64,000 bases of DNA from Giardia intestinalis (Eukaryota): the NCBI GenBank assembly GCA_000002435.2, contig CM018790.1; one strand, written 5' to 3'. Positions within the stretch are counted from its first letter, which is position 1. Each line of letters begins with the position of its first letter. Below, in pieces: positions 5,292-22,609 of the stretch. The position numbers and the translations under genes are program-made. The notes under the pieces were generated by a model. That model did no database searches. It saw only the letters and a list, made by a program, of their open reading frames with translations, and was not told the DNA's origin.

Positions 5292-8200
5292 CTAGTGATG
5301 CCCCTCTTCGTCTGAGTCCGGCCCACGCCCTTCATCATACGTCTTATTGATACTCCGCATCGTTTCATCGGGGCCCGCAATTCTGCTGATATCTGGTGTA
5401 TCAGGTAGGGTAGCCATTCGTGGGTTCTTGCTCATTATGCTGGGACCTCCGTCTCCAAATATGCCGCTCTGTGCTTCCTGGATTCTAACTCCGATGGTGC
5501 TCATGAGGCTATCACCCACTATGGTGGAAGCTCCCGGGGCCTGGGTACCTGGGACCTGTGGCGTTGACCTGGCTGGTGGCAGAGGTGTTGGTTTGGCGAC
5601 TGAAGCACTCGCTGCTCTGCTTCCTTTCTTGTTACCCTTCTTCCCCTTCTTGCCCTTCACTCCCTTTTCTTGCAGTTTCTTCAACTTTTCAGGATTCATC
5701 TGCTCCATGACCATGGTCTTAACGCAGTCTCTTAGCTCCAAACGCTCTCGCTTCTCTTGTAAACGTTGGTCCTTCGTCTTTAGCTTATCTAACTTCTTGA
5801 GTTCGGCCTCAGATATCTCATACTCCGGGGGCTGGCTATCGTCAGAGTCTGAGACTGGCTGGTCGTAACCGTTCTTGTCCAAGAAGTCAAATACTTTGGT
5901 GGTGGCAATGATCTTATTAATGGAAACAACGTGATCGAATTCTGTGTTACTCAGAGCCTCAAATTGCGCAAAGATATGTATTCGCTCTTTGAGTTTTGCC
6001 TTCAGAGAAAGAGAGAGCTTATCCATGTCAAAGCCGACAATGTCTCTCTTCGGATTGGTAATAAGATAACTGAAGGCATGCTTCATCCACGTAACATAGT
6101 CTGCCCTGATCTTCTCCAGCTCGCCTGTATATGCTTCGCAATTCTTGTCATACATTGTTCCTAGAGTAGATATCAGTGCCTCTCCATAGATGAAATAATC
6201 TAGGGGAGTGAGGTGCCGGTTGTCCAGAGGCCAATCGCTCTCAAAAACGCGAGAGTCGTCTCCCATAGCACCTAGCTTCGGGTCATTCGGGTCTCCTTCC
6301 ACAGGTACCACACCCGGAGCTGTTGTTGCTGCTAGAGCAGATGAGTAATCTCCCCCAGTGGGCAAACTGTTGGTAGTATCTTGAGTGTATTCAGATGTCG
6401 TGTCCATTGTCTCTGAAGAGAACATGGACATGAAGTTGCAGTTTCTCAAATCCAAGATCCCTCCATATTTAACTACATCCAGCGATTGTTCTAGGTCAAC
6501 CTTGCTCATTCCATACACACTGGCCTCAATCGTGTAGATGTTCTCGCACGCCCATTTCTTGACACCATATACACGCAACGTACCCGGTTTAGTGACTTCG
6601 GAATTGTTGTAGGTACAACTCTTAAGATCAAAGATATAGTTTTCCTTGTTATTCTGCAGCATGATAGGAAAGATCATTTCAGAGAAAAGGAGTCGATAAG
6701 GAGACTCTTCTGGGATCTGGTGTATCTGTGGAGACTTCTGTTCTAGCCTATCATTACGTGTGCTCAGTACCCCTGTGACTTGTGGTCCTTTTCCAGAAGC
6801 CGGGGCAATCGTGGTTGTAGGATTAAATCTGACCCCTACACCGCCTGCCTGTCCGCTCCCCACGCCTGCACTGGGGACACGCGAATTCTCTGCTGTGTGA
6901 CTAGTTGAAGAGGTCTCTTGGACAGTTTTGTACGTTGCCATCATGATCTTATGCCGCAAGAGCGCGTATTCGTTAGGATTTATGGTGTATTTGTAGGCTG
7001 CTTTAAGCAGCGAAGATTTGCTTTCTGCTTCCTTTTTAGCTGTTATGTTTCCCCCTTCTTCTCCTTCTGCTGAAAATACAGCCTTTGCAAAGTCTGTCTT
7101 CATTATGTTGACACCTACAAACTTAATAAACTGTTCTTCGTAGTAGCGCTCTATAAGGGGGACATCTAGCTCTGGCTTGATCATAGACTCATAAGTATTG
7201 GCCCCAAACAGTGCGTTCTTAGTTGCCATATGCCTGTCCATTGCTTCTTTGTATAGCTTTTCGAATACATCCTTGTCGACTCCTCCAGTCCGCTGAGTCG
7301 TTATGGAAGATGAGTCCAATAGTTTAGACGTGGTGGATGATAGCATAGAGTCCTGAGACGACTTCTCTTTTTCTTGTTCTCTTCGCCTTTCACGAGCGGT
7401 ATTTAGTAAAGTGTTGATGCTAATCAGGTCGTGAGTGAAGAAGGAGACCATGTTTTCCATTCCGAGATTAGGAATAAGGCCCAACTGACCGCAAGAAATC
7501 CAGAAGAGACGCTTAAGATCAGCGTAATTAATGCTCTCATTGGTATGGAGAAAGAAGTTGGGTTGCTTCGAGGTTCCGTGAATGTCCATTATAAATTTCA
7601 ATGTGTACTTTTGTTCTATCACATAGTCCTGGATCAATTCCCGCAGGGCAAACAGCGTAGGACTGTCTAGGTTAGTGGTTGTGGCCCAATGCTTATTGAG
7701 ATCTATTCGCCCGATATCGACACGCGAATTCCCTACTATAACACCATCAACGTTCACCATGGGGACGATCTTGAACAAAAACTTGTCTAGGAGAAACTTT
7801 CTAAGAAGCTCATTCTTATATAAACGCACCTTCAATTCCTTTAGCTCTTCGGCCGTAAGGTGATTATTTTGTCGGTAGCGCTCATCTATGCCGTAGTAAT
7901 TTCCAGCCACACCAAACAGTTCATCCTGTGAGGGTAAATCTGGCGGGATGTACTGCTGCGGTGGAGCTGGTCGAGATCCATCAGGATTCAGGACAATTTT
8001 AGGGGTTACTTCAGCTGCTGGCTGCTCTTGTGGCGATATGGTTGCAGCTAAGTCACGCATCTGCATGTCCTCTTGAGCTCCAGCATTGCCAAGAGAAACA
8101 TCTGGGCCTTCCACTGAATTATCCTGAAGCAGAAACTCTGGATTGTTATTGGCAACATGGTTCAATAGCCACGTAATGTATCGTTTCAGCTCTGCGTCGC

Positions 8201-9560
8201 GACGGCCAGATAGAAAGTCCAGAAGCCCCTGAAGAACATAACTTCCGGAAGTCTCACAGGGGTGAACCCGTGCAAGAATTACTATGAGCTCCTTACTCTG
8301 GGACGTGCCACCCATTGTTATTACATTGCAACTGTTCTCCATGAGTGTACGTGTAAGCTTCTCTATCCGCACCAGGGGGATAGCGCGCAAATATTCCATG
8401 TATCTGTTAAGATCAGTGTAAGTATATGGAAAGGCAGAGGCCAAGAAAACAATGTCTTCGTCTGATTTGAATGTTAAACTAAAGGAAAGAGTGTACTGGG
8501 ATCCCATCACATCTTGCTGTGGTTTAGATGACACCTTCTTCTTCTTAGTTATGGGCTTCTGCTCCTTTTTGTCAGATGATTTTGCTCGTGTTCCAGACTT
8601 AGATGCCGCACGACTAGCTGGCCTAGACTTTGTCCCCGATGTCTTAGGGCGCTCCGCAGCAGCCTCTACAATTGGGTTTGCATAGATATTCTCAACCATT
8701 CCGTAATAGTATTCACCTCTCTTTTTCAGCACATTAGGATAGTAGCATATCTCCTCGCCCATACGCCTCCAACCCTTTTTATGTTGTGATGGAGTATACA
8801 CCAAAATGCCAGCTCCTTCCAAAAACATCGAGGTGGGCTTTACAAAGTTAAGGATCTTGAATGTGTACCTAGTATGCTTTCTCACGTTACCGATCGCAAA
8901 ATAGAACCAATTCATGTGCTCACAAGTGCCAAAATCTGGGCTCATCATAAGCTCGTACTGCTGAGAGCCAAGAACACGTGCTGCAGAGAAGAGATTTCCT
9001 GCCTCAAAGCGTGCATCAAAGACAAGGGAATCTCCCCAACGAGTGGTCCCTTTGCACTGATACCATCCCTTGCCCCTGTATTCGCTCACGAGTAACGCAT
9101 GATAAAGAAGGATACGCTGCGGATTGGCCACCACCAGATCTGTGTCTCGCCTCTTTGCTCGCTCTATATAAAGCTTTATTGTCGCCTTGTCATTGAGTGG
9201 AGACGAAGAGGAATTAATCCTGAGGTTATCTGGGGGATAGAAGGGGCCAACTACTCGCCGTGGAATATCAGTCCGTACGCGAGGATCAGGAACAGCTACG
9301 TTGTCCCGCGGATCTTCCACGAGCTTTTTCATCTGCGATTTAGACATGTTATCACCTTCAAAGCGCTTGTCTGCGTTATTAATGGCTAGCTCTGGGTTGT
9401 GGTTAAAGGACGGCAAGACGGTCTGATTGAAAAGAGCCTGCCGGTCTGGCCGCAAAATGCACCTAGCAGACACTGTGTCTGAGATGTCATATGATTCTCC
9501 ACGCGATAACAGAGTCCCCATGATCTCATTTTCTTCGGGGGTTACCCGCTGAGCGTGCAT
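5292..9560 (-). CDS. cytosolic carboxypeptidase (M14 family, Nna1/AGTPBP1/CCP-like; tubulin deglutamylase type) with very long insertions
   Basis: 1422-aa ORF with an ATG start preceded by GAATCTAAAA. It contains the CCP N-domain signature 'FDARFEAGNLFSAARV' (FESGNL motif), the Zn-binding 'ILARVHPCETSGSYVLQGLLDFLS' (HPGE-type motif) and 'MDIHGTSKQPNFFLH' (DLHGHS-like). Long Lys/Ser-rich and acidic inserts lie between the conserved blocks. Confidence 0.65.
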   Translation of the reverse strand: MHAQRVTPEENEIMGTLLSRGESYDISDTVSARCILRPDRQALFNQTVLPSFNHNPELAINNADKRFEGDNMSKSQMKKLVEDPRDNVAVPDPRVRTDIPRRVVGPFYPPDNLRINSSSSPLNDKATIKLYIERAKRRDTDLVVANPQRILLYHALLVSEYRGKGWYQCKGTTRWGDSLVFDARFEAGNLFSAARVLGSQQYELMMSPDFGTCEHMNWFYFAIGNVRKHTRYTFKILNFVKPTSMFLEGAGILVYTPSQHKKGWRRMGEEICYYPNVLKKRGEYYYGMVENIYANPIVEAAAERPKTSGTKSRPASRAASKSGTRAKSSDKKEQKPITKKKKVSSKPQQDVMGSQYTLSFSLTFKSDEDIVFLASAFPYTYTDLNRYMEYLRAIPLVRIEKLTRTLMENSCNVITMGGTSQSKELIVILARVHPCETSGSYVLQGLLDFLSGRRDAELKRYITWLLNHVANNNPEFLLQDNSVEGPDVSLGNAGAQEDMQMRDLAATISPQEQPAAEVTPKIVLNPDGSRPAPPQQYIPPDLPSQDELFGVAGNYYGIDERYRQNNHLTAEELKELKVRLYKNELLRKFLLDKFLFKIVPMVNVDGVIVGNSRVDIGRIDLNKHWATTTNLDSPTLFALRELIQDYVIEQKYTLKFIMDIHGTSKQPNFFLHTNESINYADLKRLFWISCGQLGLIPNLGMENMVSFFTHDLISINTLLNTARERRREQEKEKSSQDSMLSSTTSKLLDSSSITTQRTGGVDKDVFEKLYKEAMDRHMATKNALFGANTYESMIKPELDVPLIERYYEEQFIKFVGVNIMKTDFAKAVFSAEGEEGGNITAKKEAESKSSLLKAAYKYTINPNEYALLRHKIMMATYKTVQETSSTSHTAENSRVPSAGVGSGQAGGVGVRFNPTTTIAPASGKGPQVTGVLSTRNDRLEQKSPQIHQIPEESPYRLLFSEMIFPIMLQNNKENYIFDLKSCTYNNSEVTKPGTLRVYGVKKWACENIYTIEASVYGMSKVDLEQSLDVVKYGGILDLRNCNFMSMFSSETMDTTSEYTQDTTNSLPTGGDYSSALAATTAPGVVPVEGDPNDPKLGAMGDDSRVFESDWPLDNRHLTPLDYFIYGEALISTLGTMYDKNCEAYTGELEKIRADYVTWMKHAFSYLITNPKRDIVGFDMDKLSLSLKAKLKERIHIFAQFEALSNTEFDHVVSINKIIATTKVFDFLDKNGYDQPVSDSDDSQPPEYEISEAELKKLDKLKTKDQRLQEKRERLELRDCVKTMVMEQMNPEKLKKLQEKGVKGKKGKKGNKKGSRAASASVAKPTPLPPARSTPQVPGTQAPGASTIVGDSLMSTIGVRIQEAQSGIFGDGGPSIMSKNPRMATLPDTPDISRIAGPDETMRSINKTYDEGRGPDSDEEGHH

Positions 9561-9621: not shown

Positions 9622-11232
9622 TTAGCTATAGCTCCCCTTTAGCAAAAGCTTATCTATGCACATACTAAACTTCTCTGAAAGAGGCGTCCGAGAACATTTC
9701 AATCTTTTCTCCAGCAATTGTAGGGCCGTCTCTCCTTCAGCATTAGAAAGGATTGCCTCGTACATGGCCAAGAGTGCAACGCATTCTACATTCCCCTCTA
9801 GAGTGGCGAGAATAAGTGCTGTGTTCCCTGAGATATCCTGCATTCCTGCCTCATCCAAAAGAAGTCTGACACATTGTGGATGGTTGTTCTCCGCTGCGTA
9901 CATTAACGCCGTGCGACCGGATGTTGTAGTCATCCGCATTTCCCTATTCCGTAAGAGCTTCACGCAGTCTTGGTGTCCATTTCTAGCTGCTCCCATTAGT
10001 GCCGTATGCCCGTCTGGCCTCTGGATGCACGCCTCAAGCATGAGCAGAGGAATGCATGCCTTCTGGCCAGAATATGCTGCATCCTGAAGTGCTGTCCAGC
10101 CTCGTCTGCTTTGGATGCCCAACTCTGAGAGCAAAGCTGAAACACACTCCACATGTCCTTTGCGTGCAGCTTTGATGAGAGCGGTGCCTTGCCAATCTGT
10201 TTTGCCCGCTTCAGATATATACTCTGTCAGTTGATCTACATTTCCTTTCTCTGCTGCTAACATTAGTGGGGTAGGAGCATCAACCTCTATTCCCATGCGC
10301 GGCATCACCTGGACCAGATTTCCTGGTGTTTTCCAATCGTTGTAGCGTCCAAAGCTTATCTGAAGAGGTGCAGATATCGATTTGTTGGAGATTGCAGACT
10401 CTCTCGTGCATATCGTATTATTTTGGCAAAGATATTGAATATGCAGAAGCAGCTCAGCTGCAGAAGGCCGGCTCTGTGGGTCAGAGAGTAAGCACTTACC
10501 TATCATATTAGTCAGGTTTATAGAGTACTCCGAAAGATTGACGTGTTGAAAATCTAAAGATTCGTTTTGTTGATTGATAAGTAGGTCTGGTTTGCAGAGA
10601 TGTAATAGTAGAGAGCCAAACGACCAGATGTCTGTCTTGGTGGTATGGGTCTTTGAACTCATCTGCTCTGGAGCTCTATACAAATTGCCGGCTGAATATA
10701 TCCAATCTTGATTAGTCTCATCTATTGTAGCACTCATAGATATGCCACCACACCAGCAGTCGCACAATTTGTAAACACCAATACCTGCGATAAGGATGTT
10801 TTCTGGCCTAAGGGCCTTGTAAACTAGTGGCCCCATGGGATTGAATTTCGAATGAAGATGTGCCAAAGCATCCGCCACGGACCTAGCTATGCTCCAAATT
10901 TCCTCCTCCTCCACTGGATTTTGCTGCTTAATATGCCTATCTAACAATGCTGAGAGGTTCTCACCCTGGAGATACTCTGTTTCAACAAGAAGTCTATCCT
11001 CTTTTCTTGGCCAGATCCTATGTATTTTTACAACCGATTCTGTGTCAAGAGATGAAAACCTGTCGTAAAACGCAAGAATTTCAGTTCTATCGACAGAGTC
11101 CAACTCGTGCAGGTCAATATCTTTCACAAGTACAAAAGTATCATCTACGAGACGCCGAGCTATGTACACCGTTTCCTTATCATTCGCGTGGAGCAGCTGG
11201 GCATCTGCGTGATGCTTAGAAATTTGATTCAT
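9622..11232 (-). CDS. NEK-like protein kinase domain (probably catalytically degenerate) fused to C-terminal ankyrin repeats
   Basis: Kinase subdomains are recognisable ('LRPENILI' in place of HRDLKPENIL, 'YRAPE', 'DIWSFGSLLLHL'), but the HRD Asp and the DFG motif are not conserved (DCW). The C-terminal half is ankyrin repeats ('TALMGAARNGHQDCVKLL', 'TALMYAAENNHPQCVRLLL', 'GNTALILATLEGNVECVALL'). The track start at 11253 is GTG; the first ATG is MNQISKHH. Confidence 0.65.
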   Translation of the reverse strand: MNQISKHHADAQLLHANDKETVYIARRLVDDTFVLVKDIDLHELDSVDRTEILAFYDRFSSLDTESVVKIHRIWPRKEDRLLVETEYLQGENLSALLDRHIKQQNPVEEEEIWSIARSVADALAHLHSKFNPMGPLVYKALRPENILIAGIGVYKLCDCWCGGISMSATIDETNQDWIYSAGNLYRAPEQMSSKTHTTKTDIWSFGSLLLHLCKPDLLINQQNESLDFQHVNLSEYSINLTNMIGKCLLSDPQSRPSAAELLLHIQYLCQNNTICTRESAISNKSISAPLQISFGRYNDWKTPGNLVQVMPRMGIEVDAPTPLMLAAEKGNVDQLTEYISEAGKTDWQGTALIKAARKGHVECVSALLSELGIQSRRGWTALQDAAYSGQKACIPLLMLEACIQRPDGHTALMGAARNGHQDCVKLLRNREMRMTTTSGRTALMYAAENNHPQCVRLLLDEAGMQDISGNTALILATLEGNVECVALLAMYEAILSNAEGETALQLLEKRLKCSRTPLSEKFSMCIDKLLLKGSYS

Positions 11233-11265
11233 GGTCTTTCGGTATACAACCACAGAGAAAATAAA
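11233..11265. promoter_or_regulatory. ~33-bp divergent intergenic region shared by the NEK-like gene (-) and Nbp35 paralogue 1 (+)
   Basis: Sequence between the two first ATGs: ..CACAGAGAAAATAAA-ATG on the plus side. It is AT-rich initiator-like, and Giardia promoters are known to be very short AT-rich elements abutting the ATG. Confidence 0.4.
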
Positions 11266-12330
11266 ATGCCATGTTGTGGTGGTGGTAGCAATGGGCCTTG
11301 TGCCTGCCGATCTGGAACTAGAGATGTCGAAGGTGACTCAGCTGTAGGTTTAAGAATGTCTGGGCCTAATGACCCTACTCCAGAGCAGATTTCTCTCAAG
11401 GGTGAGTGCGCTCCTGAAAAGTGCAGCGGCTGCCCTGCACGAGGAGCATGCTCTAGCCGTGGAGCAGACAATAGCACGAGTGTTGCTATTTCAGAACGCA
11501 TTCAGCATGTAGGCCGCATTTTACTTGTCCTTTCCGGTAAGGGTGGCGTTGGGAAGTCTACCCTGGCTACTCAGCTGGCGTTCTTTCTTGCTGACATCAT
11601 GGGGAAGTATGTGGGGCTTTTGGACTTAGATATATGTGGTCCGTCTATACCAACTATGACATTTACTAAAACTGAACAAGTGCAGAACTTGCCCACAGGA
11701 TGGGAGCCTGTTAGCGTTTCTCACACACTTCAAGCGCTTTCTGTTGGCCACCTGGTGACACAGGAGGACGCCCCAGTGATCTTGCGTGGCCCAAAAAAGC
11801 ATGGCATGGTGAAACAGATGCTAACAGAGACTAATTGGGAATTCGACCCCCGCTTTCCGAAGAGCAACATCATTATAGTAGATACGCCACCGGGTACATC
11901 GGACGAGCACCTATCCATAATAGATATGTATCAGAGTACAATCCGTTATATGCAATCTAACGGATTCCCCAATGTTCCTGTATTAGAAGCAGTTGTGATC
12001 TCTACTCCTCAGGAGGTTGCATTAGCTGATGTGCGCAAAGAGATCAACTTTTGCAAGCAGTTAAATCTCCGTATTAGAGGAGTTATTGAGAACATGTCCG
12101 GGTTTGTGTGTCCCTTCTGTGAGGCAGAGACTCCTGTAATAGAAGCAACAACTGGTGGCGTCAAGAAGATGTGTGAGGACATGAACGTCCCCTATATTGG
12201 GAGCATGCCCCTTGACCCTCAGCTTATGAAGGCAGGAGAGGATGGGGTGGCGTGGTCAACCATATGCGACATAGAGACTTCACCTGGGTATGATGCATTC
12301 GCGAATATATGCGGTAAGATCATCGAATGA
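11266..12330 (+). CDS. NBP35: Nbp35-like cytosolic Fe-S cluster assembly P-loop NTPase (Mrp/NBP35 family), paralogue 1
   Basis: N-terminal Cys cluster 'ECAPEKCSGCPARGAC' (CX4CX2CX5C ferredoxin-like), deviant Walker A 'ILVLSGKGGVGKSTLATQLA', 'LDLDICGPSIP', 'DTPPGTSDEHLS' and C-terminal 'GFVCPFCEAET' (CPXC). The track ORF begins at 11107 inside the upstream gene; the first sensible ATG is MPCCGGG at 11266. Confidence 0.8.
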   Translation: MPCCGGGSNGPCACRSGTRDVEGDSAVGLRMSGPNDPTPEQISLKGECAPEKCSGCPARGACSSRGADNSTSVAISERIQHVGRILLVLSGKGGVGKSTLATQLAFFLADIMGKYVGLLDLDICGPSIPTMTFTKTEQVQNLPTGWEPVSVSHTLQALSVGHLVTQEDAPVILRGPKKHGMVKQMLTETNWEFDPRFPKSNIIIVDTPPGTSDEHLSIIDMYQSTIRYMQSNGFPNVPVLEAVVISTPQEVALADVRKEINFCKQLNLRIRGVIENMSGFVCPFCEAETPVIEATTGGVKKMCEDMNVPYIGSMPLDPQLMKAGEDGVAWSTICDIETSPGYDAFANICGKIIE

Positions 12331-12509
12331 GTGTGACGTTTGATGGTCTGCTGGGGCGTAAACATTAATTAATGCGCGAATAAATAGCTTATCTTTTGAG
12401 TGACTGTCTCCTCACCTTTTGTGCTTGGGTAAGGATTAGGGAGTCTGGAAAACATGGGCTCTGATGTCGACTGCCATGTACATGTGCACATGTGTGGACA
12501 TGCTTCACT

Positions 12510-14570
12510 CTATGTACTCAAGTCGAGCAAATTATCGGCAGGGGTCTCGTCCTTAGAATTGCTAGATATTCCGCTCAGGTTAATGTCGACGGGGATTGAT
12601 GCTAGATTTGCTTTGGCGAGCTGCTTATCTACATGCACAGCAGAATTTGAGTATTCTCGAGCCAAAATGCGGTCGAGAACACTGTCCATGCGTTCTGTAG
12701 CAGGATTCGTTTCGATTAGACGTGTGTATGCGGTTTGCCTGGAGTTTAGAAGGATATTGATATCAATTTCCTCAGGGAGGATGTAACTACTCGAACTTTT
12801 CTTTGAAATCAAGGTGGAATCTTTGTCCTGCCTAAAAGATAAACCGAGAAGTCCTGGGCCAATTGACTTGTGGAACATCAGGGGGGATAGGTTAAACGAT
12901 GGATCGATAGTAAGCGACATTACATGACAACCGATAAACTGACCGACAAAGTCGTCACCGAGCGTTAAGTGAGAAAAGTGGCAGGAAACATATACACCGT
13001 TCCCAGACACGACCACTGGACCGGTGAACACACAGTTAGCCACTAGCTTCACACTTTGAAGACTGGTCCTTTGGCCCTCAAAGATTGAAAAGCGTATGAC
13101 AGAAATATTATGATCGACACCGTTAAATGAACTGTCATCTCCAAATACAGCATCCGCTATAAATAGGTTCATGCTTCCAGTGATCTCTGCGCCATTTTCC
13201 ACATAACAGCGTTCTATGAGGGAAGGACAGTCAGCAACCAGTGTGTGCGCTCTAACATTCTTAAGGATTGAAAGTTGCCCAGCGTGAACGGACCCCAGCA
13301 CAACTAGGTCTGACATCGTTGCTGCTATTCCTGAGGTAATGTTGGCAATAATCGTGGCAATTGCTTGATACATCCAGGAGATCTCTTTTGCGCAAAGCTG
13401 ATAAATTGGGTCATCTTTTATGTATATTCTTGATTCTTCTTCGCTCAAGAATGACCCGAACAGGGAGGTTGTATCACTCATAACGATGTCAGGGTAGCTC
13501 ATGAAATAGCCTATACATTTGCGCGGCGGGGGCCTACCCTTGGATAGTGTGCACTCTTGAAGCTCAGTATTAACGTTAGCGCCGAATTTTGATACACTTG
13601 CATTCCTACCCAAGATGTTATTCGTGAGCACCGCATGCTGGTGTATAGACGTCGTGCTGAGTTCCAGTTCAGTAATGCACATCTGTACAGACGACTCCAA
13701 ATCGATGTTGGTGCTTAAGTCTGGCGAGTCTATAAAGCATTTTGTTCTAGACAATTCAGATCCCTGTCTTGATTTAATGCTCCGGCGCCTCCTTGAAGGG
13801 CGAATGATTTTTGCTAGAGACTCTGGTCTAACAATGCTTTTTGTTTGAAGAGGTGATGGAGAGCTTTTATCTACCAATAATGCAGAAGGAGGAGATGCGG
13901 TAGTAGTAGTAAGCGTGGAGCTCAATATAGTTTCAAGAGGCCACATGCCGATACTGTACTCTTGGGGGGTAGGGTTGATAAGTCTTAGCAGCTTTTGATC
14001 CTTCCTAGATACCTTCTTATTTTGCTTCTTCCAGGCATAGGCCTCAGCATTAACGTTTCTGATAATACACCCGCTTCCAGAGTGAGATAATTTGAACAAT
14101 AGGTCTCGGTATGACCACACAGGAAGTATAGAAAGCGTAAGCTGAAAGGCTTTATTGAAGTCCTTTACTATATTGGTTGCCATGAGCCCGAATACAACGC
14201 GCTCTTCAAGGATATTGTAGAGAGAACTAATAGACTTCTTAACAGATTCGTTCTTACGGCCAAACCACTGAAGCTTGAGGGCCTGAAACTTACTTTCTAT
14301 AGCCTGGTACATATCTCGTATGTAATCCTGGCCTGCACTTATTACCTCCTTCATTTGTCTGATTCTCTCCGTAATGACTTCCTGCTGGTTCACAGAGTTG
14401 TCTGCCCTGGCCTTGATAGCATTTAAAAGATTACTAACTGTACAGGTGGGGTGGTCCTCTTTGATATGGGCTTGAATGGTACACTCTGGGCACTTGGTGG
14501 TGGAGATGGTTGACTCACAAAGAGGACAATAAATGGAATCTGATCTTTTTCCACAGCTGCAATAGGGCAT
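12510..14570 (-). CDS. hypothetical protein with N-terminal Cys-rich zinc-finger-like motif
   Basis: Long ORF with N-terminal 'MPYCSCGKRSDSIYCPLCESTISTTKCPECTIQAH' followed by a helical region and a Ser/Thr-rich linker. The track start at 14660 is GTG and overlaps the divergent gene; the first ATG is at aa31 (about 14570). Function unknown. Confidence 0.4.
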   Translation of the reverse strand: MPYCSCGKRSDSIYCPLCESTISTTKCPECTIQAHIKEDHPTCTVSNLLNAIKARADNSVNQQEVITERIRQMKEVISAGQDYIRDMYQAIESKFQALKLQWFGRKNESVKKSISSLYNILEERVVFGLMATNIVKDFNKAFQLTLSILPVWSYRDLLFKLSHSGSGCIIRNVNAEAYAWKKQNKKVSRKDQKLLRLINPTPQEYSIGMWPLETILSSTLTTTTASPPSALLVDKSSPSPLQTKSIVRPESLAKIIRPSRRRRSIKSRQGSELSRTKCFIDSPDLSTNIDLESSVQMCITELELSTTSIHQHAVLTNNILGRNASVSKFGANVNTELQECTLSKGRPPPRKCIGYFMSYPDIVMSDTTSLFGSFLSEEESRIYIKDDPIYQLCAKEISWMYQAIATIIANITSGIAATMSDLVVLGSVHAGQLSILKNVRAHTLVADCPSLIERCYVENGAEITGSMNLFIADAVFGDDSSFNGVDHNISVIRFSIFEGQRTSLQSVKLVANCVFTGPVVVSGNGVYVSCHFSHLTLGDDFVGQFIGCHVMSLTIDPSFNLSPLMFHKSIGPGLLGLSFRQDKDSTLISKKSSSSYILPEEIDINILLNSRQTAYTRLIETNPATERMDSVLDRILAREYSNSAVHVDKQLAKANLASIPVDINLSGISSNSKDETPADNLLDLST

Positions 14571-14606
14571 TTCAAAGATTGAAGCACAGAAGACAAATGA
14601 AAATTT
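14571..14606. promoter_or_regulatory. ~36-bp divergent intergenic region
   Basis: AT-rich (..GACAAATGAAAATTTATGA-ATG on the plus side; ..CAATCTTTGAA-ATG on the minus side). Confidence 0.35.
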
Positions 14607-16484
14607 ATGAATGTTGCTGTCTTTGGACCTGCGTCCAACTCTGAACGTACATATCTGCACAATGTTCTCACAAGGGTTCTCTCAGATGTAACTACTATGG
14701 ATAGCGCCAGAGAAGCCCTTTCATTGGGGGGAGATGCATTGCTCGGCTATCCTCAATTTTCCGAAGTGGACTTGAAGCTAGAGCCCCCATTTCTCTCTCG
14801 AAATGCTACCGTGCCAAAACTTTTATCTAAGTTAGCACATGTCCCGGTGCTGGCTCGTTTGTTTCCCAAGCGGCTTCACAAACCAACTGCCATTGCCAAT
14901 TACACCCCATCCAAGAGAGCTTCCGGACGTGTATTTTGTGGCGTGTCAGACGGCCGTTTCATTGGAGAGGTAGTTGGATCTGCTCATCTAGGCGTCTCCA
15001 TGGCTTCGGCTAGCGTCTCCTATGACCCCGTGAGAAACATGACAGAGGGAAATCTAGAAGCTTGTCGTTTAGATCCCCTTCAGGTGTGTAATACTAAGCA
15101 CATACTGGTGCGCAAGGAAGCTGGTCAACAATTCTCTAACTATCAATCTTTTCTTAATACTATTTTCAATCAATCAGAGAGCAGGGAAAATAGCAGGGAG
15201 GGTAGCACTATTTCGCCACTTTCAGATACACAGGTAGAAGGGGTATCTCTCAAAGTGTCCAACACAGGAAACTTCAGATCCAATGACAACAATGACAAGC
15301 ATCAATTTGGTTCGGCACCATTCACAACAGAACTTTCTTTAATACTAACAGAGATAACCAAGGATATCCCGACGATGTTAAAGAAGCCCCAAGAGGATTC
15401 TCATTGGACATTTGCTAGCCCCGGACCAGCCTATCATCTTTCACAACTAGATGACGTGACCAGGTCTCTTCACTTCTACCGCAACTCTTCCCGTGTGTCA
15501 GTCGTTACGCAGAAGAATACTTTCATCACAAGCAGGGGTGTCTGGGACTCAGCCTCACGTAGCCATAGAGACGTACCACTGGATAGATATCTCAAGATAG
15601 GTAGGCAGATACTTACTACAGCGTCTCCACATCCGAACGTGTCTGTTCTCTTTGGGGTGGAGCCGTTCTGCAGATTCCATTTTGCTAGGGGTGCGACAAA
15701 CAGACGCTTGGCGTCAAATATTGTAACAGGCCTTCGTGCCGAAGTGGCAACGACGGCAGCAATGTACCTGAGTCCCAGTCTTATGCTTTCCGCATCTGGG
15801 TCTGTCCACGTATCTGAATCTATTGATAGAAGGCGTATATGCAACTTCATTAAGCAATTGCCTGCTGCTGCAAAACAAGACAGTACCCACCAAACCAACA
15901 GCAGCTATAGTCATAGGGCAGTGCTCTCTAATTTAACAAAATCGGAGATAGATGAGAATCTGGGTGACAGCATTAGAAGCAAATTGCGAGGGTTTGCTGA
16001 AGTAATGAGTCCCACGAGCTTTTCATATGTGAAGAACGAGATAATGAATCTCGAGAGCCACTCTGTCCAACCGCATGGGTATACATATACCCCAATTCAC
16101 GATGGTTACGGATGCGCAAGCTCTTCAAAACTGACTCTTTCACCAGTAACAACAGGAAGACATATGGGCAACGGGTTCCTGGCACGCACACACCTGATGG
16201 GGATATGGAAGTCGCCACTCCGAACACCTATATCTAGACCAAATTCAATATATCTGCTAGCAGGCATTGAGGCAGCCATCCCCAAGGATACTCCCCTGGG
16301 GTTAATAAAGGACCTTTCTGTCTATGGGGCGCGTAGAGTGATGCATAATTTTTTGGAATATGCAGCCTATACAGGCGTTCACGTTCGTACACCCATCCCC
16401 GTCACTGCAACTGTCTCACTGTGGTCAAGCAGGGACTTAACTATTAAGCAGAGATTCACATTTGGCTTTTCGCTGAATACATGA
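14607..16484 (+). CDS. hypothetical protein (625 aa), no recognisable domain
   Basis: Uninterrupted ORF with an AT-rich initiator. Its TGA stop is embedded in the ATGA start of the downstream Nbp35 paralogue. Confidence 0.45.
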   Translation: MNVAVFGPASNSERTYLHNVLTRVLSDVTTMDSAREALSLGGDALLGYPQFSEVDLKLEPPFLSRNATVPKLLSKLAHVPVLARLFPKRLHKPTAIANYTPSKRASGRVFCGVSDGRFIGEVVGSAHLGVSMASASVSYDPVRNMTEGNLEACRLDPLQVCNTKHILVRKEAGQQFSNYQSFLNTIFNQSESRENSREGSTISPLSDTQVEGVSLKVSNTGNFRSNDNNDKHQFGSAPFTTELSLILTEITKDIPTMLKKPQEDSHWTFASPGPAYHLSQLDDVTRSLHFYRNSSRVSVVTQKNTFITSRGVWDSASRSHRDVPLDRYLKIGRQILTTASPHPNVSVLFGVEPFCRFHFARGATNRRLASNIVTGLRAEVATTAAMYLSPSLMLSASGSVHVSESIDRRRICNFIKQLPAAAKQDSTHQTNSSYSHRAVLSNLTKSEIDENLGDSIRSKLRGFAEVMSPTSFSYVKNEIMNLESHSVQPHGYTYTPIHDGYGCASSSKLTLSPVTTGRHMGNGFLARTHLMGIWKSPLRTPISRPNSIYLLAGIEAAIPKDTPLGLIKDLSVYGARRVMHNFLEYAAYTGVHVRTPIPVTATVSLWSSRDLTIKQRFTFGFSLNT

Positions 16485-17500
16485 CGGCTGACCACAAATG
16501 CAACTGTAGGTCTCGTGCGACATTTCTAAAAATGGCAGACCAGCCTGTGTCGGCTTCAAATTGCCAGCCCGACAAGTGTGCAGGCTGTCCGTCCAAGGGG
16601 TCGTGTGGATCATCTACAGAATCGCCTGATAATAGGGCTATCGCTGAAAAGCTGAAGAACATTGGAACAATTATCTTGGTCCTTTCCGGCAAGGGTGGAG
16701 TTGGCAAGTCCACTGTTTCCACACAATTGGGCTTCTACTTGGCTGAGAACATGGAGAAGAATGTGGGTCTTATGGATGTGGATATCTGCGGGCCGTCGAT
16801 ACCGACGATGACGTCGTCTCAGGGATCCGAAGTCCACCAGTCTGCACTTGGTTGGGAGCCGATCAGCGTGCTGCCCAATATGGCAATCATATCTATTGGG
16901 TTTATGCTCGAGAAGCTGGACGACCCTGTCATACTGAGAGGTCCCAAGAAGCATGGGATCATAAGCAACTTCTTAAAAGATGTTCACTGGCATTTTGACA
17001 GCGAGAAAATTGAAGATAATTACCTCATCATAGATACGCCACCGGGCACGTCTGACGAACACCTCTCTGTGATCAACATGCTTTCGGCGGCAATGCGTGT
17101 GCTAAATAAAGAGAAAGAGACTGACCCTAGTGTGCACACCCCCACGTTCTTTGCTGTGGTTGTTTCCACTCCCCAGGAAGTTGCTTTGGCCGACGTGCGT
17201 AAAGAGATTAATTTCTGTAAGCAGATTAAGGTGGATGTGAAGGGAGTGATCGAGAATATGTCCGGTTTTGTGTGCCCATGTTGCAATAAAGAGACTCAGA
17301 TCTTCAACCCGTCCTCTGGTGGTGTAAAGCAGCTCTGTGCAGACTACAAAGTAAAGTTCTTGGGCAGAGTGCCACTGGATCCCCAACTCACAAAGGCCAG
17401 TGAGAGTGGGCAAGCATGGAAGAAAGCCGTTGAGGAGGGCACCGTTAGCAAGGGGATGGAGATGTTCTATGAGGTGGTCAAGGGGATTCTTTCTGAGTGA
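16481..17500 (+). CDS. NBP35: Nbp35-like cytosolic Fe-S cluster assembly P-loop NTPase, paralogue 2
   Basis: N-terminal 'NCQPDKCAGCPSKGSC' (CX4CX2CX5C), 'ILVLSGKGGVGKSTVSTQLG', 'MDVDICGPSIPTMT', 'IIDTPPGTSDEHLSV', 'GFVCPCCNKET'. It is collinear and clearly similar to paralogue 1 across the whole NTPase core. An alternative start is MADQPV at about 16532. Confidence 0.8.
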   Translation: MTADHKCNCRSRATFLKMADQPVSASNCQPDKCAGCPSKGSCGSSTESPDNRAIAEKLKNIGTIILVLSGKGGVGKSTVSTQLGFYLAENMEKNVGLMDVDICGPSIPTMTSSQGSEVHQSALGWEPISVLPNMAIISIGFMLEKLDDPVILRGPKKHGIISNFLKDVHWHFDSEKIEDNYLIIDTPPGTSDEHLSVINMLSAAMRVLNKEKETDPSVHTPTFFAVVVSTPQEVALADVRKEINFCKQIKVDVKGVIENMSGFVCPCCNKETQIFNPSSGGVKQLCADYKVKFLGRVPLDPQLTKASESGQAWKKAVEEGTVSKGMEMFYEVVKGILSE

Positions 17501-20500
17501 GCTTGCTGAAGTTCTGTTTTAGTGAATGAGTCCTGCATATGTCTGAGAGAAATGAGATGTCCACCGTGTTGACGAACGAGTACGGGCCACACCGGAAGCG
17601 TCTATGAGACTCGCTGGCTATGGAGGTTGTCGGATTATACAGACCGTTCTTGTGTGCAGTCTCCTGATCACACAAAAGACATGAGAAGGTGCTCCTATCA
17701 GTTATCAACTCAATCTTGCCTATTTCTCCTGTGAAAAGGGTATAGTAAATGATGGTAGTGGATTCCTTGCCCCTTCGTGGCTCAGCAGTTAGTGACGTAA
17801 CTGGAGAAGCAACACATATCTCTGCATATAAGGAGAGCTTTTTAGAGACAGATGCTTGATGATACCGGCTATCTATTGTGCATGATAGTACTGAAATTGT
17901 CCCAAATCGGTCTCCGACGACAATGATGTCTGGATTGAGTGGTAAAATCGCAGTTATAATTCGCATAGGGACACTGTCAGTAAGTTCCAAAGCAAGCTTG
18001 CACTTTGGGGCTTGCGAAAAAGAGAAAATAGCCAGCCCAGCTTTGTTCATGACAACTACTATGCGTGAGCTGCCTAGAAATACTAAACGAATGATTGCAT
18101 CTGGAAGCAGCTCTTGAGCAACGACTTCTTTAATTGCTGTGTCGTACACTAAAAGTCTTTGTGCCATCCCAATACACAAGGTGGCTGAAGATTGCCCCAT
18201 GCCACAGAGTGCAGTGATATCCCATTCAGAAGATAGGAGATAGTGTGCTGGATGTATCTCTTTTATCTGCCGAGATAGCAACTTTGCTATGTTGTCAATA
18301 GTGTAGAAAGATTGTCCATCGGCCCAGGACAATCTGCCAGATGAGTAGTCATATGAAAGAAGACTCGTGCGTGCTGCCAGAGGGAGAGTATACTTAATTC
18401 CCAGCTCGCTATCTGGTAATTTACGGCCTAATCCCATTGTTCGTATAACCACTAAACTTGTTTTATCAGGCACTGAGTGAGATCTAATTATGCATGCGCA
18501 ATATCCACCTTTAAGCATCGTTAGTCCATGCACCGAAAGACCTGCATTATCTTCTACAAATACTTTAATGCTCGTTAGCGATGGACACAGAAGCCCTTCA
18601 ACTGGTTCAAAGACGTGAAATTGCAAATCGGCTGTCACACCTATGAAGTACTTATCCAGAGCACCTTCTATACTCAATGAAGCTATGGACAGAAACGAAG
18701 ATATAGGAAAGTCTAGGCGATAGAGCTGGCGTGGTATCAGACAATCTTTTATAACGGAAAACGCAAGCCAATAGAATACTACTCCATTAGATGTAAGCAT
18801 AACGCTGGTTGTAGATACAGGATGAACCTTGAAGCTCTTCATCTCATGAGGTTGATCGTTAAATAAAATTGGGGCGTCCTTTGCAAAGATTGAAGCAGTT
18901 GTCTCTAGATATTCATTGAGCTCAAGCAAGGACATGATACTCTTCATGTCTAAGATCTTCTCCTCCTTTTTATCAACATAGAAAATATGCAATCCATCTG
19001 TGGCAACTACAAACACTGGAGTATACCTATAGTCGGTAGGCGATGACCAATATGGGCTTAGAAATATGTATATGATGTGTCGCTTTTCATCCAATACAAA
19101 GACTGAGGCAGCGTATTTAAAGTCACTATCTACACTATCTATAGCCTGGTTAACATTCTCCGAAAAAAGGAAGTTAGAATATAATGCTAAAACGTTATTA
19201 TTGCTGCAAAGAAAGAGATCTGAGCATATATGTGCGAGCTGATGACAAGATTGCTTAATGTACTGATTGAAAGAGACATGACAATCTACCATAAATGTGG
19301 GCAAAAATTGCGATATATGGAGATTATGAGGATGTGACTCTTTATCTCTGCCTGTGTAGAGCTGTAATCGGTGAAGATTCCCTATATTAACAGATAGCTT
19401 TAGCAGCCCATTCTGTGTCTGAAAGCATATTTGTGCAGACCTGTCGTTGATAGGCATGCAATATAACACTGATACTAGCGGCACTTTTAAGGAACAGTCA
19501 TAGGTGAAGAGAAGATATGACGACGATTCTGATACCCCAGGTTCGTCCTCCGATAGCTCGTTATCATATTTATGCCTCCCGACTCCGCTTGAAGACCATT
19601 TGCTTGTTAGGAAATCGGTAGTAGAATCGTCTGTGTATTCGTCATGGTCTGGTGGGATCTGAGAGGCATAGCTTAAGGCTCTCCTAATACTGCTATGACA
19701 CAATGAGATAAACACTAGCTTAAGCCTACAAGGCTCGTCTCCTTCAAATATTTGCAAGATAATACCGTTGTGAAGCGTAAAGATCCCCAGTAGGTGACCT
19801 TCCATGTAGATAGGCGTGGCATTTTGTTGAGTTGCAAGGGACTCAGAGACGAATAAGAGATTCATCTCAAGTACCTCCGTACGTACGCTAGATAGTATAG
19901 TTGGTTTATACACGATCTTAGAGTGATGCGACGCGTATTTTAGGCCCGTGTCGACGACTTTCAGACATATGTTTCTTCGGGTCTGTTGAGGATTGAGTGT
20001 GGTGCATGAAAAGATTAAGTACCCAGTAGAATCAAACATAACTTGATAGAGTGCAACAGAGGACACTGCAGAGCTCTCTTCCTTGATCAAGGGCCCCGAG
20101 TATATGTGTGTCATGGGGACAGCAAGAGAGCATAATGAGAGAGATGTTTTGTTTGCCACAAGGTACTTTGAGTCAACCGCATTTGGTGCTGACAATACCA
20201 CCGCAGATGCTATTATGTCAGCAATTGGAAGAGAAATCTCATGGAGCAGTATTCTTGATAGAAACTCAGCCGTATCCTCCTCTCTGAATCCTTCCTTGAG
20301 TGCGACTGGTTGAGTCAATAGCCGCAATAGCTGCAAGGCTGGATAGATAGGGCTACCGTCTCTGTATGTAGGATACTGTACCAGTCGACTAAGTAAAGGG
20401 AGCGGTGCCAGCTTATGACCCCTAGGCAAGTCCACAATCCTGTACAAGGTCAAGCTTCCTGTAGCCATGACACACCCCAGAAACCCACTAGTGAGAAGAA

Positions 20501-21851
20501 AGCATCCTTGACAGGGAATGGACAAAGTTCCAACTCGGGTAATCTGTATTGAAAGAGAGCCCGTGGAATGAAGTGTAAACCGCTCAACTTGTGTATTGGC
20601 TTCTGATATATGGGAGAGATTGCTACTAACTGCAGAACTGAGGAATAAAATGTTATTCAATGTAAAGCTAGATTGATCGGTTGGTATAAGTACACTTGTC
20701 AGCTCACCGGTTTCGCTACAAAGCCAAACGTGGGAGCAGCTGCTACTTTGATCAAGGTGCACCTCCTGTGCAAATATAATGTGCCCCGTCGATGGAGAGA
20801 CGGGTGCTTCTGAAGCTATTGCCAGATATGTCCCAAATAGAGCACATCCCACCAAACGAAGTGGGTCAGGAAGCTCATAAGACGAAAGAGAAGCTATACT
20901 TATAAGAAGTTCTCCTTCCTCAGCGTAGTCGAACGCGCCAGTACCGTCCCGATGCGCATGCAAGAATGGATAAATATCCAACCACATTGTGTTAAGAAAG
21001 TCAGATGACAAGCAGAGAATCAGTTTCCCGCCAAAGCCAATAAGTCCAGACGAGATGGTCCTAATTGCTAGAATGGATGGGTGCACAATAAGATGGTGCA
21101 CTTTAGAGCACGTGTCCACCATAGCGACGCGGAAGAGAAGATGCAGCCCTGTACTTGTGTCTTTTCCTAGTATGATGCAGCACGGTTCGGATAGTAGTGC
21201 GATGCAAAGATCTAGGCTTAGCAGCTGTGGCACTCCCCAGCGCCTTGGTGGCCTAGGCCCTTCAATCTTGTCGGTGCTACCTGGAGTAAGGAGGGCATCA
21301 CTCAAGCTAATTACAGTGGGAGGGAGCAAGAACATTTCATCAGGCCCCAGTGTTTCCAAGAGCATAGAGTCAGCTCCATGGAGCCTTTCCTTTGTCTCTA
21401 GCTTGAAAATGAGCAACGTGGCATCAAGGAGAAGCACGGCAATATAGCCAAGCCGGCTAGCCACACGCCAGGGGGATGTGCTTCTGATGCCGGAACGGGA
21501 CACCCTGTGCGTGAGGATGCAGTGAAAGAATGATACAGACGCTCTGTTGTCGGCCGTGCATTGGACGGCATGAACAGACAAGCGCCCTCCGTCGTCTATA
21601 GCTAGTAGGAGTGCTCTAGAGCCGCTCTCTTTGGATAGGTCTAAAACATCAAGACCCAGAATCGTTGAATAAAGCTCCTGACTGGCTAAGCAAATAAGTC
21701 TTCGCGTCCCTGTTAGTGGAGACTCTATGACAGAATAGAGATAGAGCACGGAGCCAGAGGATGCTATTATGTGCTCTTCATTGGAACTTGTAAACCGACC
21801 TACAACCCAGTGTTCCCAGCCTTGCCGCTCTTTTACAGAGGTGTGTAACAT
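17478..21851 (-). CDS. very large beta-propeller-type protein, DDB1/CPSF160/SF3b130-family-like (tentative)
   Basis: About 1457 aa from the first ATG. The N-terminus 'SGSVLYLYSV...ALLLAIDDGGRLSVHAVQC' resembles the start of CPSF1/DDB1 ('..LYVYRL...DALLLSFKDAKLSVVEYD'), and the C-terminal 'VNTVDISFLSDICRTHSLKQ' resembles the CPSF_A tail. This family assignment is by eye only. Confidence 0.4.
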   Translation of the reverse strand: MLHTSVKERQGWEHWVVGRFTSSNEEHIIASSGSVLYLYSVIESPLTGTRRLICLASQELYSTILGLDVLDLSKESGSRALLLAIDDGGRLSVHAVQCTADNRASVSFFHCILTHRVSRSGIRSTSPWRVASRLGYIAVLLLDATLLIFKLETKERLHGADSMLLETLGPDEMFLLPPTVISLSDALLTPGSTDKIEGPRPPRRWGVPQLLSLDLCIALLSEPCCIILGKDTSTGLHLLFRVAMVDTCSKVHHLIVHPSILAIRTISSGLIGFGGKLILCLSSDFLNTMWLDIYPFLHAHRDGTGAFDYAEEGELLISIASLSSYELPDPLRLVGCALFGTYLAIASEAPVSPSTGHIIFAQEVHLDQSSSCSHVWLCSETGELTSVLIPTDQSSFTLNNILFLSSAVSSNLSHISEANTQVERFTLHSTGSLSIQITRVGTLSIPCQGCFLLTSGFLGCVMATGSLTLYRIVDLPRGHKLAPLPLLSRLVQYPTYRDGSPIYPALQLLRLLTQPVALKEGFREEDTAEFLSRILLHEISLPIADIIASAVVLSAPNAVDSKYLVANKTSLSLCSLAVPMTHIYSGPLIKEESSAVSSVALYQVMFDSTGYLIFSCTTLNPQQTRRNICLKVVDTGLKYASHHSKIVYKPTILSSVRTEVLEMNLLFVSESLATQQNATPIYMEGHLLGIFTLHNGIILQIFEGDEPCRLKLVFISLCHSSIRRALSYASQIPPDHDEYTDDSTTDFLTSKWSSSGVGRHKYDNELSEDEPGVSESSSYLLFTYDCSLKVPLVSVLYCMPINDRSAQICFQTQNGLLKLSVNIGNLHRLQLYTGRDKESHPHNLHISQFLPTFMVDCHVSFNQYIKQSCHQLAHICSDLFLCSNNNVLALYSNFLFSENVNQAIDSVDSDFKYAASVFVLDEKRHIIYIFLSPYWSSPTDYRYTPVFVVATDGLHIFYVDKKEEKILDMKSIMSLLELNEYLETTASIFAKDAPILFNDQPHEMKSFKVHPVSTTSVMLTSNGVVFYWLAFSVIKDCLIPRQLYRLDFPISSFLSIASLSIEGALDKYFIGVTADLQFHVFEPVEGLLCPSLTSIKVFVEDNAGLSVHGLTMLKGGYCACIIRSHSVPDKTSLVVIRTMGLGRKLPDSELGIKYTLPLAARTSLLSYDYSSGRLSWADGQSFYTIDNIAKLLSRQIKEIHPAHYLLSSEWDITALCGMGQSSATLCIGMAQRLLVYDTAIKEVVAQELLPDAIIRLVFLGSSRIVVVMNKAGLAIFSFSQAPKCKLALELTDSVPMRIITAILPLNPDIIVVGDRFGTISVLSCTIDSRYHQASVSKKLSLYAEICVASPVTSLTAEPRRGKESTTIIYYTLFTGEIGKIELITDRSTFSCLLCDQETAHKNGLYNPTTSIASESHRRFRCGPYSFVNTVDISFLSDICRTHSLKQNFSKLTQKESP

Positions 21852-21979
21852 ACCCTCTGAAGAGGTCGAGTAGTGGATAAAATTAGGATCTTTTTTCAGC
21901 AATTTACTATGTGCTTTCAAAAAGCATGGAGCAACCAGGCTGACGAAAAATCAGGAGACTAAAATCAAAAGAGGAAATC

Positions 21980-22609
21980 CTACTTTCTTTCTACTACCAC
22001 GGGCCTGATATCCGCGCGCGACACTAGGGGAACTTGAGGAATGGTAACTAAGGAAAGAGCATGGGGACACCCATTTACGGGTGCTGCTTTGAGACACTTC
22101 CCTGTTCGTACGTCGGCAGCCACGTGTGCACTACACTGCTGAAAAACCCGCTCGACCGTTGGCTTGTAAATTGGTCTATATGGAATGTGAATATTTCTGT
22201 TTTGTAAGTTGAGGGATTGACGCTCGGAGGACTCAGAATAATTTAGGGCCGCAGAAGCCTTCCCTGTCTCTTCTTGCCCGTCCTCTTGGCGTGCAAATAT
22301 AGAATCATTTAAGCTACTAAACGATGAGTATATTTCCTTGTTCCGTAAACGTCTATCGACGTACTCTGTTTTGAAAAACTTGACCTTATTAACAGAAGGA
22401 TGGTTCACCTGCTTTGTTAGATTAGCTATTCGCTTTTGCTCCTCGCGCTTTTGTGGAGATATGTCTTCATAATAGTCATCAAGCTGAGGCAGGGGAGGAC
22501 CAGACCTATAGGCATAATTATCGTAGCAGAGGCACAGGTCTGGATACCGTATGGCCCCCTTTCCAACAGTACCATCATGCATACCAGGTAGAGGTATTCT
22601 AAGAGCCAT
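21980..22609 (-). CDS. hypothetical protein (209 aa)
   Basis: ORF with an ATG start, in tandem with the downstream serine dehydratase gene. No motif recognised. Confidence 0.4.
   Translation of the reverse strand: MALRIPLPGMHDGTVGKGAIRYPDLCLCYDNYAYRSGPPLPQLDDYYEDISPQKREEQKRIANLTKQVNHPSVNKVKFFKTEYVDRRLRNKEIYSSFSSLNDSIFARQEDGQEETGKASAALNYSESSERQSLNLQNRNIHIPYRPIYKPTVERVFQQCSAHVAADVRTGKCLKAAPVNGCPHALSLVTIPQVPLVSRADIRPVVVERK

Follow-up and report, generated by a model that had tools for sequence, protein, structure and literature searches.

Two genes for Nbp35-type iron-sulphur (Fe-S) scaffold proteins lie about 4 kb apart on the same strand of the Giardia intestinalis genome, and the question that this locus raises is how the two came to be neighbours and how long ago. 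Both are located in a 64,000-nucleotide stretch of contig CM018790.1 (G. intestinalis WB, assembly GCA_000002435.2), hereafter the window, whose numbering is used throughout. Copy A (GL50803_15324, KAE8302030.1) is a 354-aa open reading frame (ORF) at positions 11266 to 12330 of the + strand. Copy B (GL50803_10969, KAE8302033.1) encodes 322 aa at positions 16532 to 17500 of the same strand, within an ORF that reaches back to 16481; both gene identifiers are those of S2 Table (PMC10578589). We consider it likely that A and B are a pair of Nbp35 paralogues born of a head-to-tail tandem duplication in the stem of the Giardia lineage and later separated by two genes.

We compared the locus with that of G. 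muris and with two contigs from Giardia-like metagenomic lineages, L004 (a 26-kb Logan contig, SRR31929897, 52% GC) and L005 (a 21-kb JGI contig, 60% GC). Both contigs carry an A-type and a B-type gene as direct neighbours on one strand, in head-to-tail orientation, with 72 bp between them in L004 and about 280 bp in L005. In G. muris the order was an M14-like gene (−), the A-type gene (+), a 547-aa gene (−), a 545-aa gene (+) and the B-type gene (+). The two G. muris genes that separate the copies have their orthologues at the same position in G. intestinalis. There, the original prediction had described two unrelated divergent genes, and these are indeed a hypothetical 716-aa ORF (gene 1, 12510 to 14660, − strand) and a hypothetical 625-aa gene (gene 2, 14607 to 16484, + strand), both without a Pfam match. 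Gene 1 is orthologous to the 547-aa gene (E 5e-37) and gene 2, end to end, to the 545-aa gene (E 5e-38), with identities of 26–31%; neither gene had a match on the sequenced portions of L004 or L005 that we examined.

The flanks of the locus were conserved as well. Upstream, a large M14-peptidase-like gene (5292 to 9560, − strand) is 54% identical to the gene adjoining copy A in G. muris and has a homologue on L005 (41%, E 7e-44), which lies upstream of copy A at a distance of about 8 kb. Downstream, a large CPSF_A/DDB1-like gene (17478 to 21920, − strand) has homologues downstream of B in G. muris (E 9e-22) and in L004 (E 2e-13). On the L004 contig the CPSF_A/DDB1-like gene is followed by a serine dehydratase gene (17863–19497 of that contig, − strand), the homologue (46%, E 3e-139) of the L-serine dehydratase gene KAE8302036.1 (22638 to 24215, − strand) of the window, where both genes are likewise downstream of B. 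By parsimony, the copies probably began as a head-to-tail tandem into which two genes were inserted later, giving the current 4-kb spacing.

A and B were the only Nbp35-like sequences in the window (tblastn), and with a score of about 300 bits in the same program neither has a closer paralogue in the genome than the other. The third Nbp35 paralogue of Giardia (GL50803_14604 in S2 Table of PMC10578589; KAE8303238.1) is encoded elsewhere in the genome, outside the window. We compared it through its assemblage B orthologue (EET00375.1, our P0365, 412 aa), which scored 213 bits against A and 209 bits against B with 35% identity in each case, and it was not among the best 120 matches of the homology searches made with A or B. 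Between A and B, BLASTP gave 47% identity over 351 aa (E 4e-117) and a global alignment 50%; the core identity of 55–60% formerly judged by eye came out at 57% over the 203 columns from Walker A to CPxC when the pairwise alignment was run. The pair thus has the marks of tandem duplicates: the same + strand, mutual closest paralogy and adjacency in L004 and L005.

We then considered the position of the two copies among the diplomonad proteins. Neighbour-joining (NJ) trees were bootstrapped with 300 replicates under three distance corrections, support being taken as an unrooted bipartition count. All diplomonad Nbp35 proteins grouped together in 100% of the replicates, the Hexamitinae in 93–95%, the A clade in 86–89% and the B clade in 68–92%. 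Both subtrees placed L004 and L005 outside the pair formed by G. intestinalis and G. muris, the support for this pair being 92–94% for A and 82–86% for B in the NJ analysis. The grouping of A with B was recovered in 46–53% of the replicates, that of A with the Hexamitinae in 22–25%, and that of B with the Hexamitinae in 9–23%. Two alignment columns strictly distinguished A and B from the Hexamitinae and 13 outgroups, a P in place of A in DDPV and a Q in place of K at alignment column 375; a looser scan added a third, from W or M to L. In the segment DDPVILRG, A and B have P and L, the Hexamitinae A and M, and the 13 outgroups A and W, so that A and B read P..L where DDAVIWRG has A..W; diplomonads also have KKH where other lineages have KKN. 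The P of DDPV is carried by the third Giardia paralogue too. No column strictly united B, or A, with the Hexamitinae (signature counts of 2 versus 0 and 0). A sister relationship of A and B, the plurality topology and the one to which the two signature residues point, is favoured though not proven.

Several points weigh against this reading. The A plus B grouping has a bootstrap support of only about 50%, obtained by NJ with simple distances; the P signature shows some homoplasy, being found also in lgn27, an unrelated sequence; the choice between an insertion in Giardia and a loss in L004 and L005 is made by outgroup position and parsimony only; and these two deeper lineages are known from metagenomic contigs. 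Moreover, B is 60–66% identical to the Nbp35 of the Hexamitinae and 53–57% to the A-type proteins, the same pattern that an older duplication would give. If the tandem duplication predated the diplomonad radiation and the Hexamitinae then lost the A-type gene, their Nbp35 would be orthologues of the B type. This explanation also has on its side that Hexamitinae outrank A-type proteins in the homology search with B, as well as the minority of replicates that join the two. Still, A plus B was recovered two to five times as often as B plus Hexamitinae; the strict signatures all fall to A plus B; and the P shared by A, B and the third paralogue is an A in all five Hexamitinae and the 13 outgroups. 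No A-type protein of Spironucleus or Hexamita was present among the matches listed in the searches with A and B, and the Spironucleus and Hexamita loci examined contain a single Nbp35 gene. As for the low similarity of A to everything else, the faster rate of A alone accounts for it. We hold an origin before the diplomonad radiation to be rather unlikely, and a duplication in the Giardia stem remains the reading that we favour.

Much less credible is a proximity due to coincidence, in which the copies would be independent paralogues, or one of them a member of Cfd1, Ind1 or ApbC, brought together by rearrangement. The two unrelated genes that separate the copies in Giardia would fit such a history, but the direct head-to-tail adjacency in L004 and L005, the placement of both copies within the one fully supported diplomonad Nbp35 clade and the far greater distance of the non-adjacent third paralogue all contradict it. 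So does the identity of the proteins. The four-Cys ferredoxin-like motif found in Nbp35 is lacking in Cfd1, Ind1 and most ApbC (PMC6006210). Both copies keep it at their N-terminus and group with Nbp35, apart from Cfd1/NUBP2; with this motif intact, neither of them reproduces the Cfd1 architecture. With the prokaryotic ApbC/Mrp and MrpORP proteins, the Giardia copies have in common the P-loop core and a CPxC-type C-terminal motif, but their scores of 145–263 bits are far under the NCBIfam equivalog cut-offs (MrpORP, 237 bits for A and 263 for B against 450; ApbC, 149 and 145 bits against 348). The named top matches of A and B in protein homology searches were all Nbp35/NUBP1, barring a few hypothetical or unnamed entries. 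In an NJ tree rooted on bacterial Mrp, the diplomonad clade nested among Nbp35 proteins and adjoined Kipferlia (89%), with Naegleria NUBP2 outside; this was a light test of Nbp35 versus Cfd1/Mrp placement, as it included only one Cfd1 and one bacterial sequence. Synteny and phylogeny together led us to reject coincidence, which we regard as very improbable. The original prediction of a local duplication holds in this respect: no non-adjacent paralogue and no other family proved closer to either copy than its neighbour.

What did not hold was the age suggested by describing the pair as a relatively local segmental duplication: synonymous sites are saturated and the layout is kept in G. muris. 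Over the whole genes the nucleotide identity between A and B was 55% (58%, 73% and 34% at codon positions 1, 2 and 3, respectively), and by the NG86 method the synonymous divergence (dS) was undefined owing to saturation, with a nonsynonymous divergence (dN) of 0.48. Identical residues used the same codon in a proportion of 0.42, against 0.38 expected from codon usage, and third-position identity did not exceed 53% in any 30-codon window. The shared nucleotide stretches to which attention had been drawn do exist: starting at 11881 in A and at 17033 in B, they are identical at 30 of 36 positions. Both encode DTPPGTSDEHLS, that is 12 identical residues, and all six mismatches are synonymous, so protein conservation explains them and they are not a remnant of recent DNA copying. 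With dS saturated, same-codon use close to expectation and no window of high identity, the DNA similarity between A and B comes from the conservation of the proteins. The duplication is ancient, and nothing in the two genes points to gene conversion or to copying in recent times. The rival view of a recent segmental duplication, or of an ongoing gene conversion, in which the 30/36 match would be a direct remnant of copied DNA, was rejected as having practically no chance of being correct, given the saturated synonymous sites and the orthologous A and B clades kept separately in G. muris and in the two deeper lineages.

Altogether, the direct adjacency of A and B in L004 and L005, the synteny with G. 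muris, the bootstrap values and the signature residues lead us to favour a duplication in the Giardia stem. In this history a single diplomonad Nbp35 gene would have duplicated head to tail before the split between G. intestinalis and G. muris, and before at least two deeper Giardia-like lineages had branched off from them, most likely after the Giardia lineage had parted from the Hexamitinae (Spironucleus and Hexamita). The copies would then have been separated by two unrelated genes in the last ancestor shared by G. intestinalis and G. muris, which produced the 4.2-kb spacing. Copy B would have stayed conservative and copy A would have evolved about 1.5 to 2 times faster, yet keeping nearly all universally conserved positions. 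The difference in rate is plain in the present proteins: the WB and GS isolates are 89.5% identical for copy A and 95.7% for copy B, and WB and G. muris 57% and 70%, respectively, making A the faster-evolving paralogue and B the slower one. Of 110 Nbp35 columns conserved outside the diplomonads, A retains 86 and B 90.

The functional sites of the two proteins were located by motif scanning. Copy A is 100% identical to XP_001708267.2/KAE8302030.1, annotated as 'Nucleotide-binding protein 35' of G. intestinalis WB, and the translation of 16532–17500 is exactly KAE8302033.1/XP_001708263.2; both match PF10609 end to end (Pfam, E 2e-74 for A and 7e-79 for B). The motifs C-x4-C-x2-C-x5-C, GKGGVGKST, D-x-DICGPSIP, DTPPGTSDEH and GFVCPxC are all present in A and in B, which bears out the full Nbp35 architecture originally proposed for the two ORFs; the wording of the quoted motifs was slightly off, A having ILLVLSG and not ILVLSG, and B MDVDICGPS and not LDVDICGPS. 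In copy A, on the + strand, the ferredoxin-like motif CAPEKCSGCPARGAC (C-x4-C-x2-C-x5-C, aa 48–62) is at 11407 to 11451, the deviant Walker A motif GKGGVGKST at 11536 to 11562, the Walker B/switch II motif DTPPGTSDEH at 11881 to 11910, inside the 36-nucleotide stretch discussed above, and the C-terminal GFVCPFC with its CPxC motif at 12100 to 12120. The corresponding positions in copy B, also on the + strand, are 16562 to 16606 for CQPDKCAGCPSKGSC (aa 11–25), 16688 to 16714 for GKGGVGKST, 17033 to 17062 for DTPPGTSDEH and 17264 to 17284 for GFVCPCC. In an alignment of 15 diplomonad Nbp35 proteins the four N-terminal cysteines were invariant, as were C248, P249 and C251 of the CPxC motif, which in Nbp35 and Cfd1 is the ligand motif of the bridging cluster, and the catalytic and cluster-binding motif positions in general were invariant or nearly so. 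Among solved structures the best sequence match was Chaetomium Cfd1 (6G2G, E 1.8e-60); this match and the intact motifs settle the fold in our view.

The start of copy B differs from the one first proposed. The ORF at 16481–17500 does exist and contains two in-frame ATG codons, at 16481 (339 aa, the older model) and at 16532 (322 aa, the current model), of which the second is the annotated start in the current model. The 322-aa orthologues listed for other assemblages likewise begin at this second ATG, which is preceded by the A-rich sequence CTAAAAATG, resembling the AAAATAAAATG that stands before the start codon of copy A. The upstream ATG shares nucleotides with the stop codon of the gene before it (ATGA), and the longer form was picked by automated gene callers on 186 public contigs. 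At the other end of copy B, its 3' end and that of the convergent 1480-aa gene have 23 bp in common (17478–17500).

At its N-terminus, copy A carries an extra Cys motif, MPCCGGGSNGPCAC (11266 to 11307, + strand), specific to G. intestinalis. This tag is Cys-rich (CC-x7-C-x-C) and is kept in assemblages A, B and E, whose proteins vary over the roughly 25 aa that follow it; comparison with the G. muris copy A protein showed that the tag is absent there. The tag may serve as an additional metal site or as a signal for dual-Cys acylation; the MPCC...CxC start presumably resembles a dual-Cys palmitoylation site of the GAP-43 type.

Both proteins were detected in the mass spectrometry data of a mitosome-enriched high-speed pellet, with 11 peptides for A (62% coverage), 14 for B (53%) and 8 for the third paralogue (32%), in a table that compares a knockout with its control (S3 Table, PMC10578589); A and B are thus expressed. 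From their family and conserved sites, we predict that they are functional Nbp35 paralogues acting as scaffolds of the cytosolic Fe-S assembly (CIA) pathway. By analogy with the family, each would form a dimeric ATPase of the deviant-Walker-A type, with a stable [4Fe-4S] cluster seated on the four-Cys motif at the N-terminus. A second, labile [4Fe-4S] cluster would assemble on the CPxC motifs, bridging the two subunits at their interface, and would pass from there via Nar1, Cia1 and Cia2 to apoproteins. Since Giardia lacks Cfd1, the dimers would be made of Nbp35 only, as homodimers or as A/B heterodimers. A copy may also have specialised, as the original prediction suggested, in replacing Cfd1 or in facing the mitosome. 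A more speculative proposal, and one that is probably wrong, is that an obligate A/B heterodimer remakes the division of labour between Nbp35 and Cfd1, with B as the conservative core and A as its fast-evolving partner, the lipid- or metal-binding N-terminal tag of G. intestinalis A tethering the complex to the mitosomal outer membrane. If true, it would account for the tandem pair having been kept together through the Giardia lineage, and the tag would hold the heterodimer where the mitosomal iron-sulphur cluster (ISC) and CIA pathways meet.

The yeast and human scaffold is a heteromer of Nbp35/NUBP1 and Cfd1/NUBP2, with which the Giardia proteins have in common the PF10609 fold family, the deviant Walker A, the switch motifs, CPxC and the four-Cys motif; the identity of the Giardia copies to animal and fungal NUBP1/Nbp35 is 41–53%. 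They differ from this system in the lack of a Cfd1 partner and in the first Cys spacing, which is C-x4-C in both copies and which we take to be longer, about x13, in yeast and human Nbp35. Plant NBP35 can do without Cfd1 (Bych et al. 2008, as cited in PMC6006210; PMC5324674) and, as far as these citations go, is a precedent for an Nbp35-only scaffold in Giardia. The plant protein is presumably a homodimer. Giardia keeps a diverged tandem pair together with a third, highly divergent copy, whereas Arabidopsis presumably has a single NBP35 gene.

Much of this background is already known: both genes are annotated, and the existence of three paralogues, the lack of Cfd1 and the partial association of two Nbp35 proteins with mitosomes have been published. 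To our knowledge, the minimal cytosolic Fe-S assembly of Giardia has no Cfd1, Dre2, Tah18 or Atm1, and the passage of clusters or their precursors from mitosome to cytosol is the context in which the Nbp35 pair is to be seen. Giardia has been reported to have three Nbp35 homologues and to lack Dre2, Tah18 and Mms19 (PMC6006210), and diplomonads to lack Cfd1 (PMC7980591), in agreement with the several paralogues and missing Cfd1 of the original prediction; the latter spoke of one mitosomal copy, but the literature has two Nbp35 partly associated with mitosomes (PMC6006210, PMC10578589), along with Cia2 (PMC10578589). A and B are exact matches to two of the three members of the known Giardia set (GL50803_15324, GL50803_10969 and GL50803_14604). 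For this set, reported as Nbp35-1, -2 and -3, PMC6006210 and PMC10578589 cite Pyrih et al. 2016 (Mol Microbiol 102:701). We did not find the history of the locus (tandem origin, adjacency in deeper lineages and later insertion) in the literature searched, although Pyrih et al. 2016 may already cover it. Its reconstruction from G. muris and two uncultured relatives is a small addition; the case is otherwise a routine one, a tandem pair of old date in a genome already annotated. An ancient, stably retained pair with unequal rates is a rational basis for studying A and B as a pair and the third, degenerate copy separately.

This third paralogue, which we recognised by matching its 45.18-kDa mass (S3 Table, PMC10578589) to the representative P0215/P0365, is highly degenerate. 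It has GKGGAGKS and DFPPGASEEH, has lost RGPKKHG (VDGDGKEE instead), shows an N-terminal Cys spacing of C-x3-C-x2-C-x3-C and contains an insert of about 70 aa, with CPHC kept. Its best non-self matches were B-type proteins; the search turned up no G. muris orthologue, and one distant JGI relative (P0239). Extra N-terminal repeats of the C-x2-C-x5-C type were observed in several fornicate Nbp35 proteins (P0004, P0013, P0017 and P0010), with one repeat in the B-type protein of L005 (11271–11441 of that contig), at least two in Kipferlia and many in a MetaClust sequence. In fornicates, the N-terminal region for cluster binding thus seems to expand readily.

Some features of the neighbouring genes are also worth recording. 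The likely start codon of intervening gene 1 is the ATG at 14570, so that the two divergent genes would begin about 36 bp apart; the N-terminus of the gene 1 product is Cys-rich (CSCGK...CPLC...CPEC). L-serine dehydratase is entered as a [4Fe-4S] protein in S2 Table (PMC10578589), and KAE8302036.1, whose accession is three numbers after that of copy B, is probably GL50803_24662. A CIA client enzyme is thus linked to the Nbp35 pair in both G. intestinalis and L004; no serine dehydratase match was found in the G. muris stretch examined, and the linkage is probably just conserved synteny. Between copy B and the dehydratase, G. intestinalis has on its minus strand (17478–22609) the CPSF_A/DDB1-like gene and a small gene (21980–22609, 209 aa) that matches a 198-aa gene of G. 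muris; in the latter species both lie on the plus strand and their order is reversed (15337–19612 of contig L001). Strand and order being reversed, a two-gene inversion directly downstream of copy B accounts for the arrangement. On the other side of the locus, a NEK-type kinase gene with ankyrin repeats (9622–11253, − strand) lies between the M14-like gene and copy A, a place where G. muris has no gene, and the ankyrin part of the kinase gave several weaker matches near 59.5–61.2 kb of the window (about 59550–61240).

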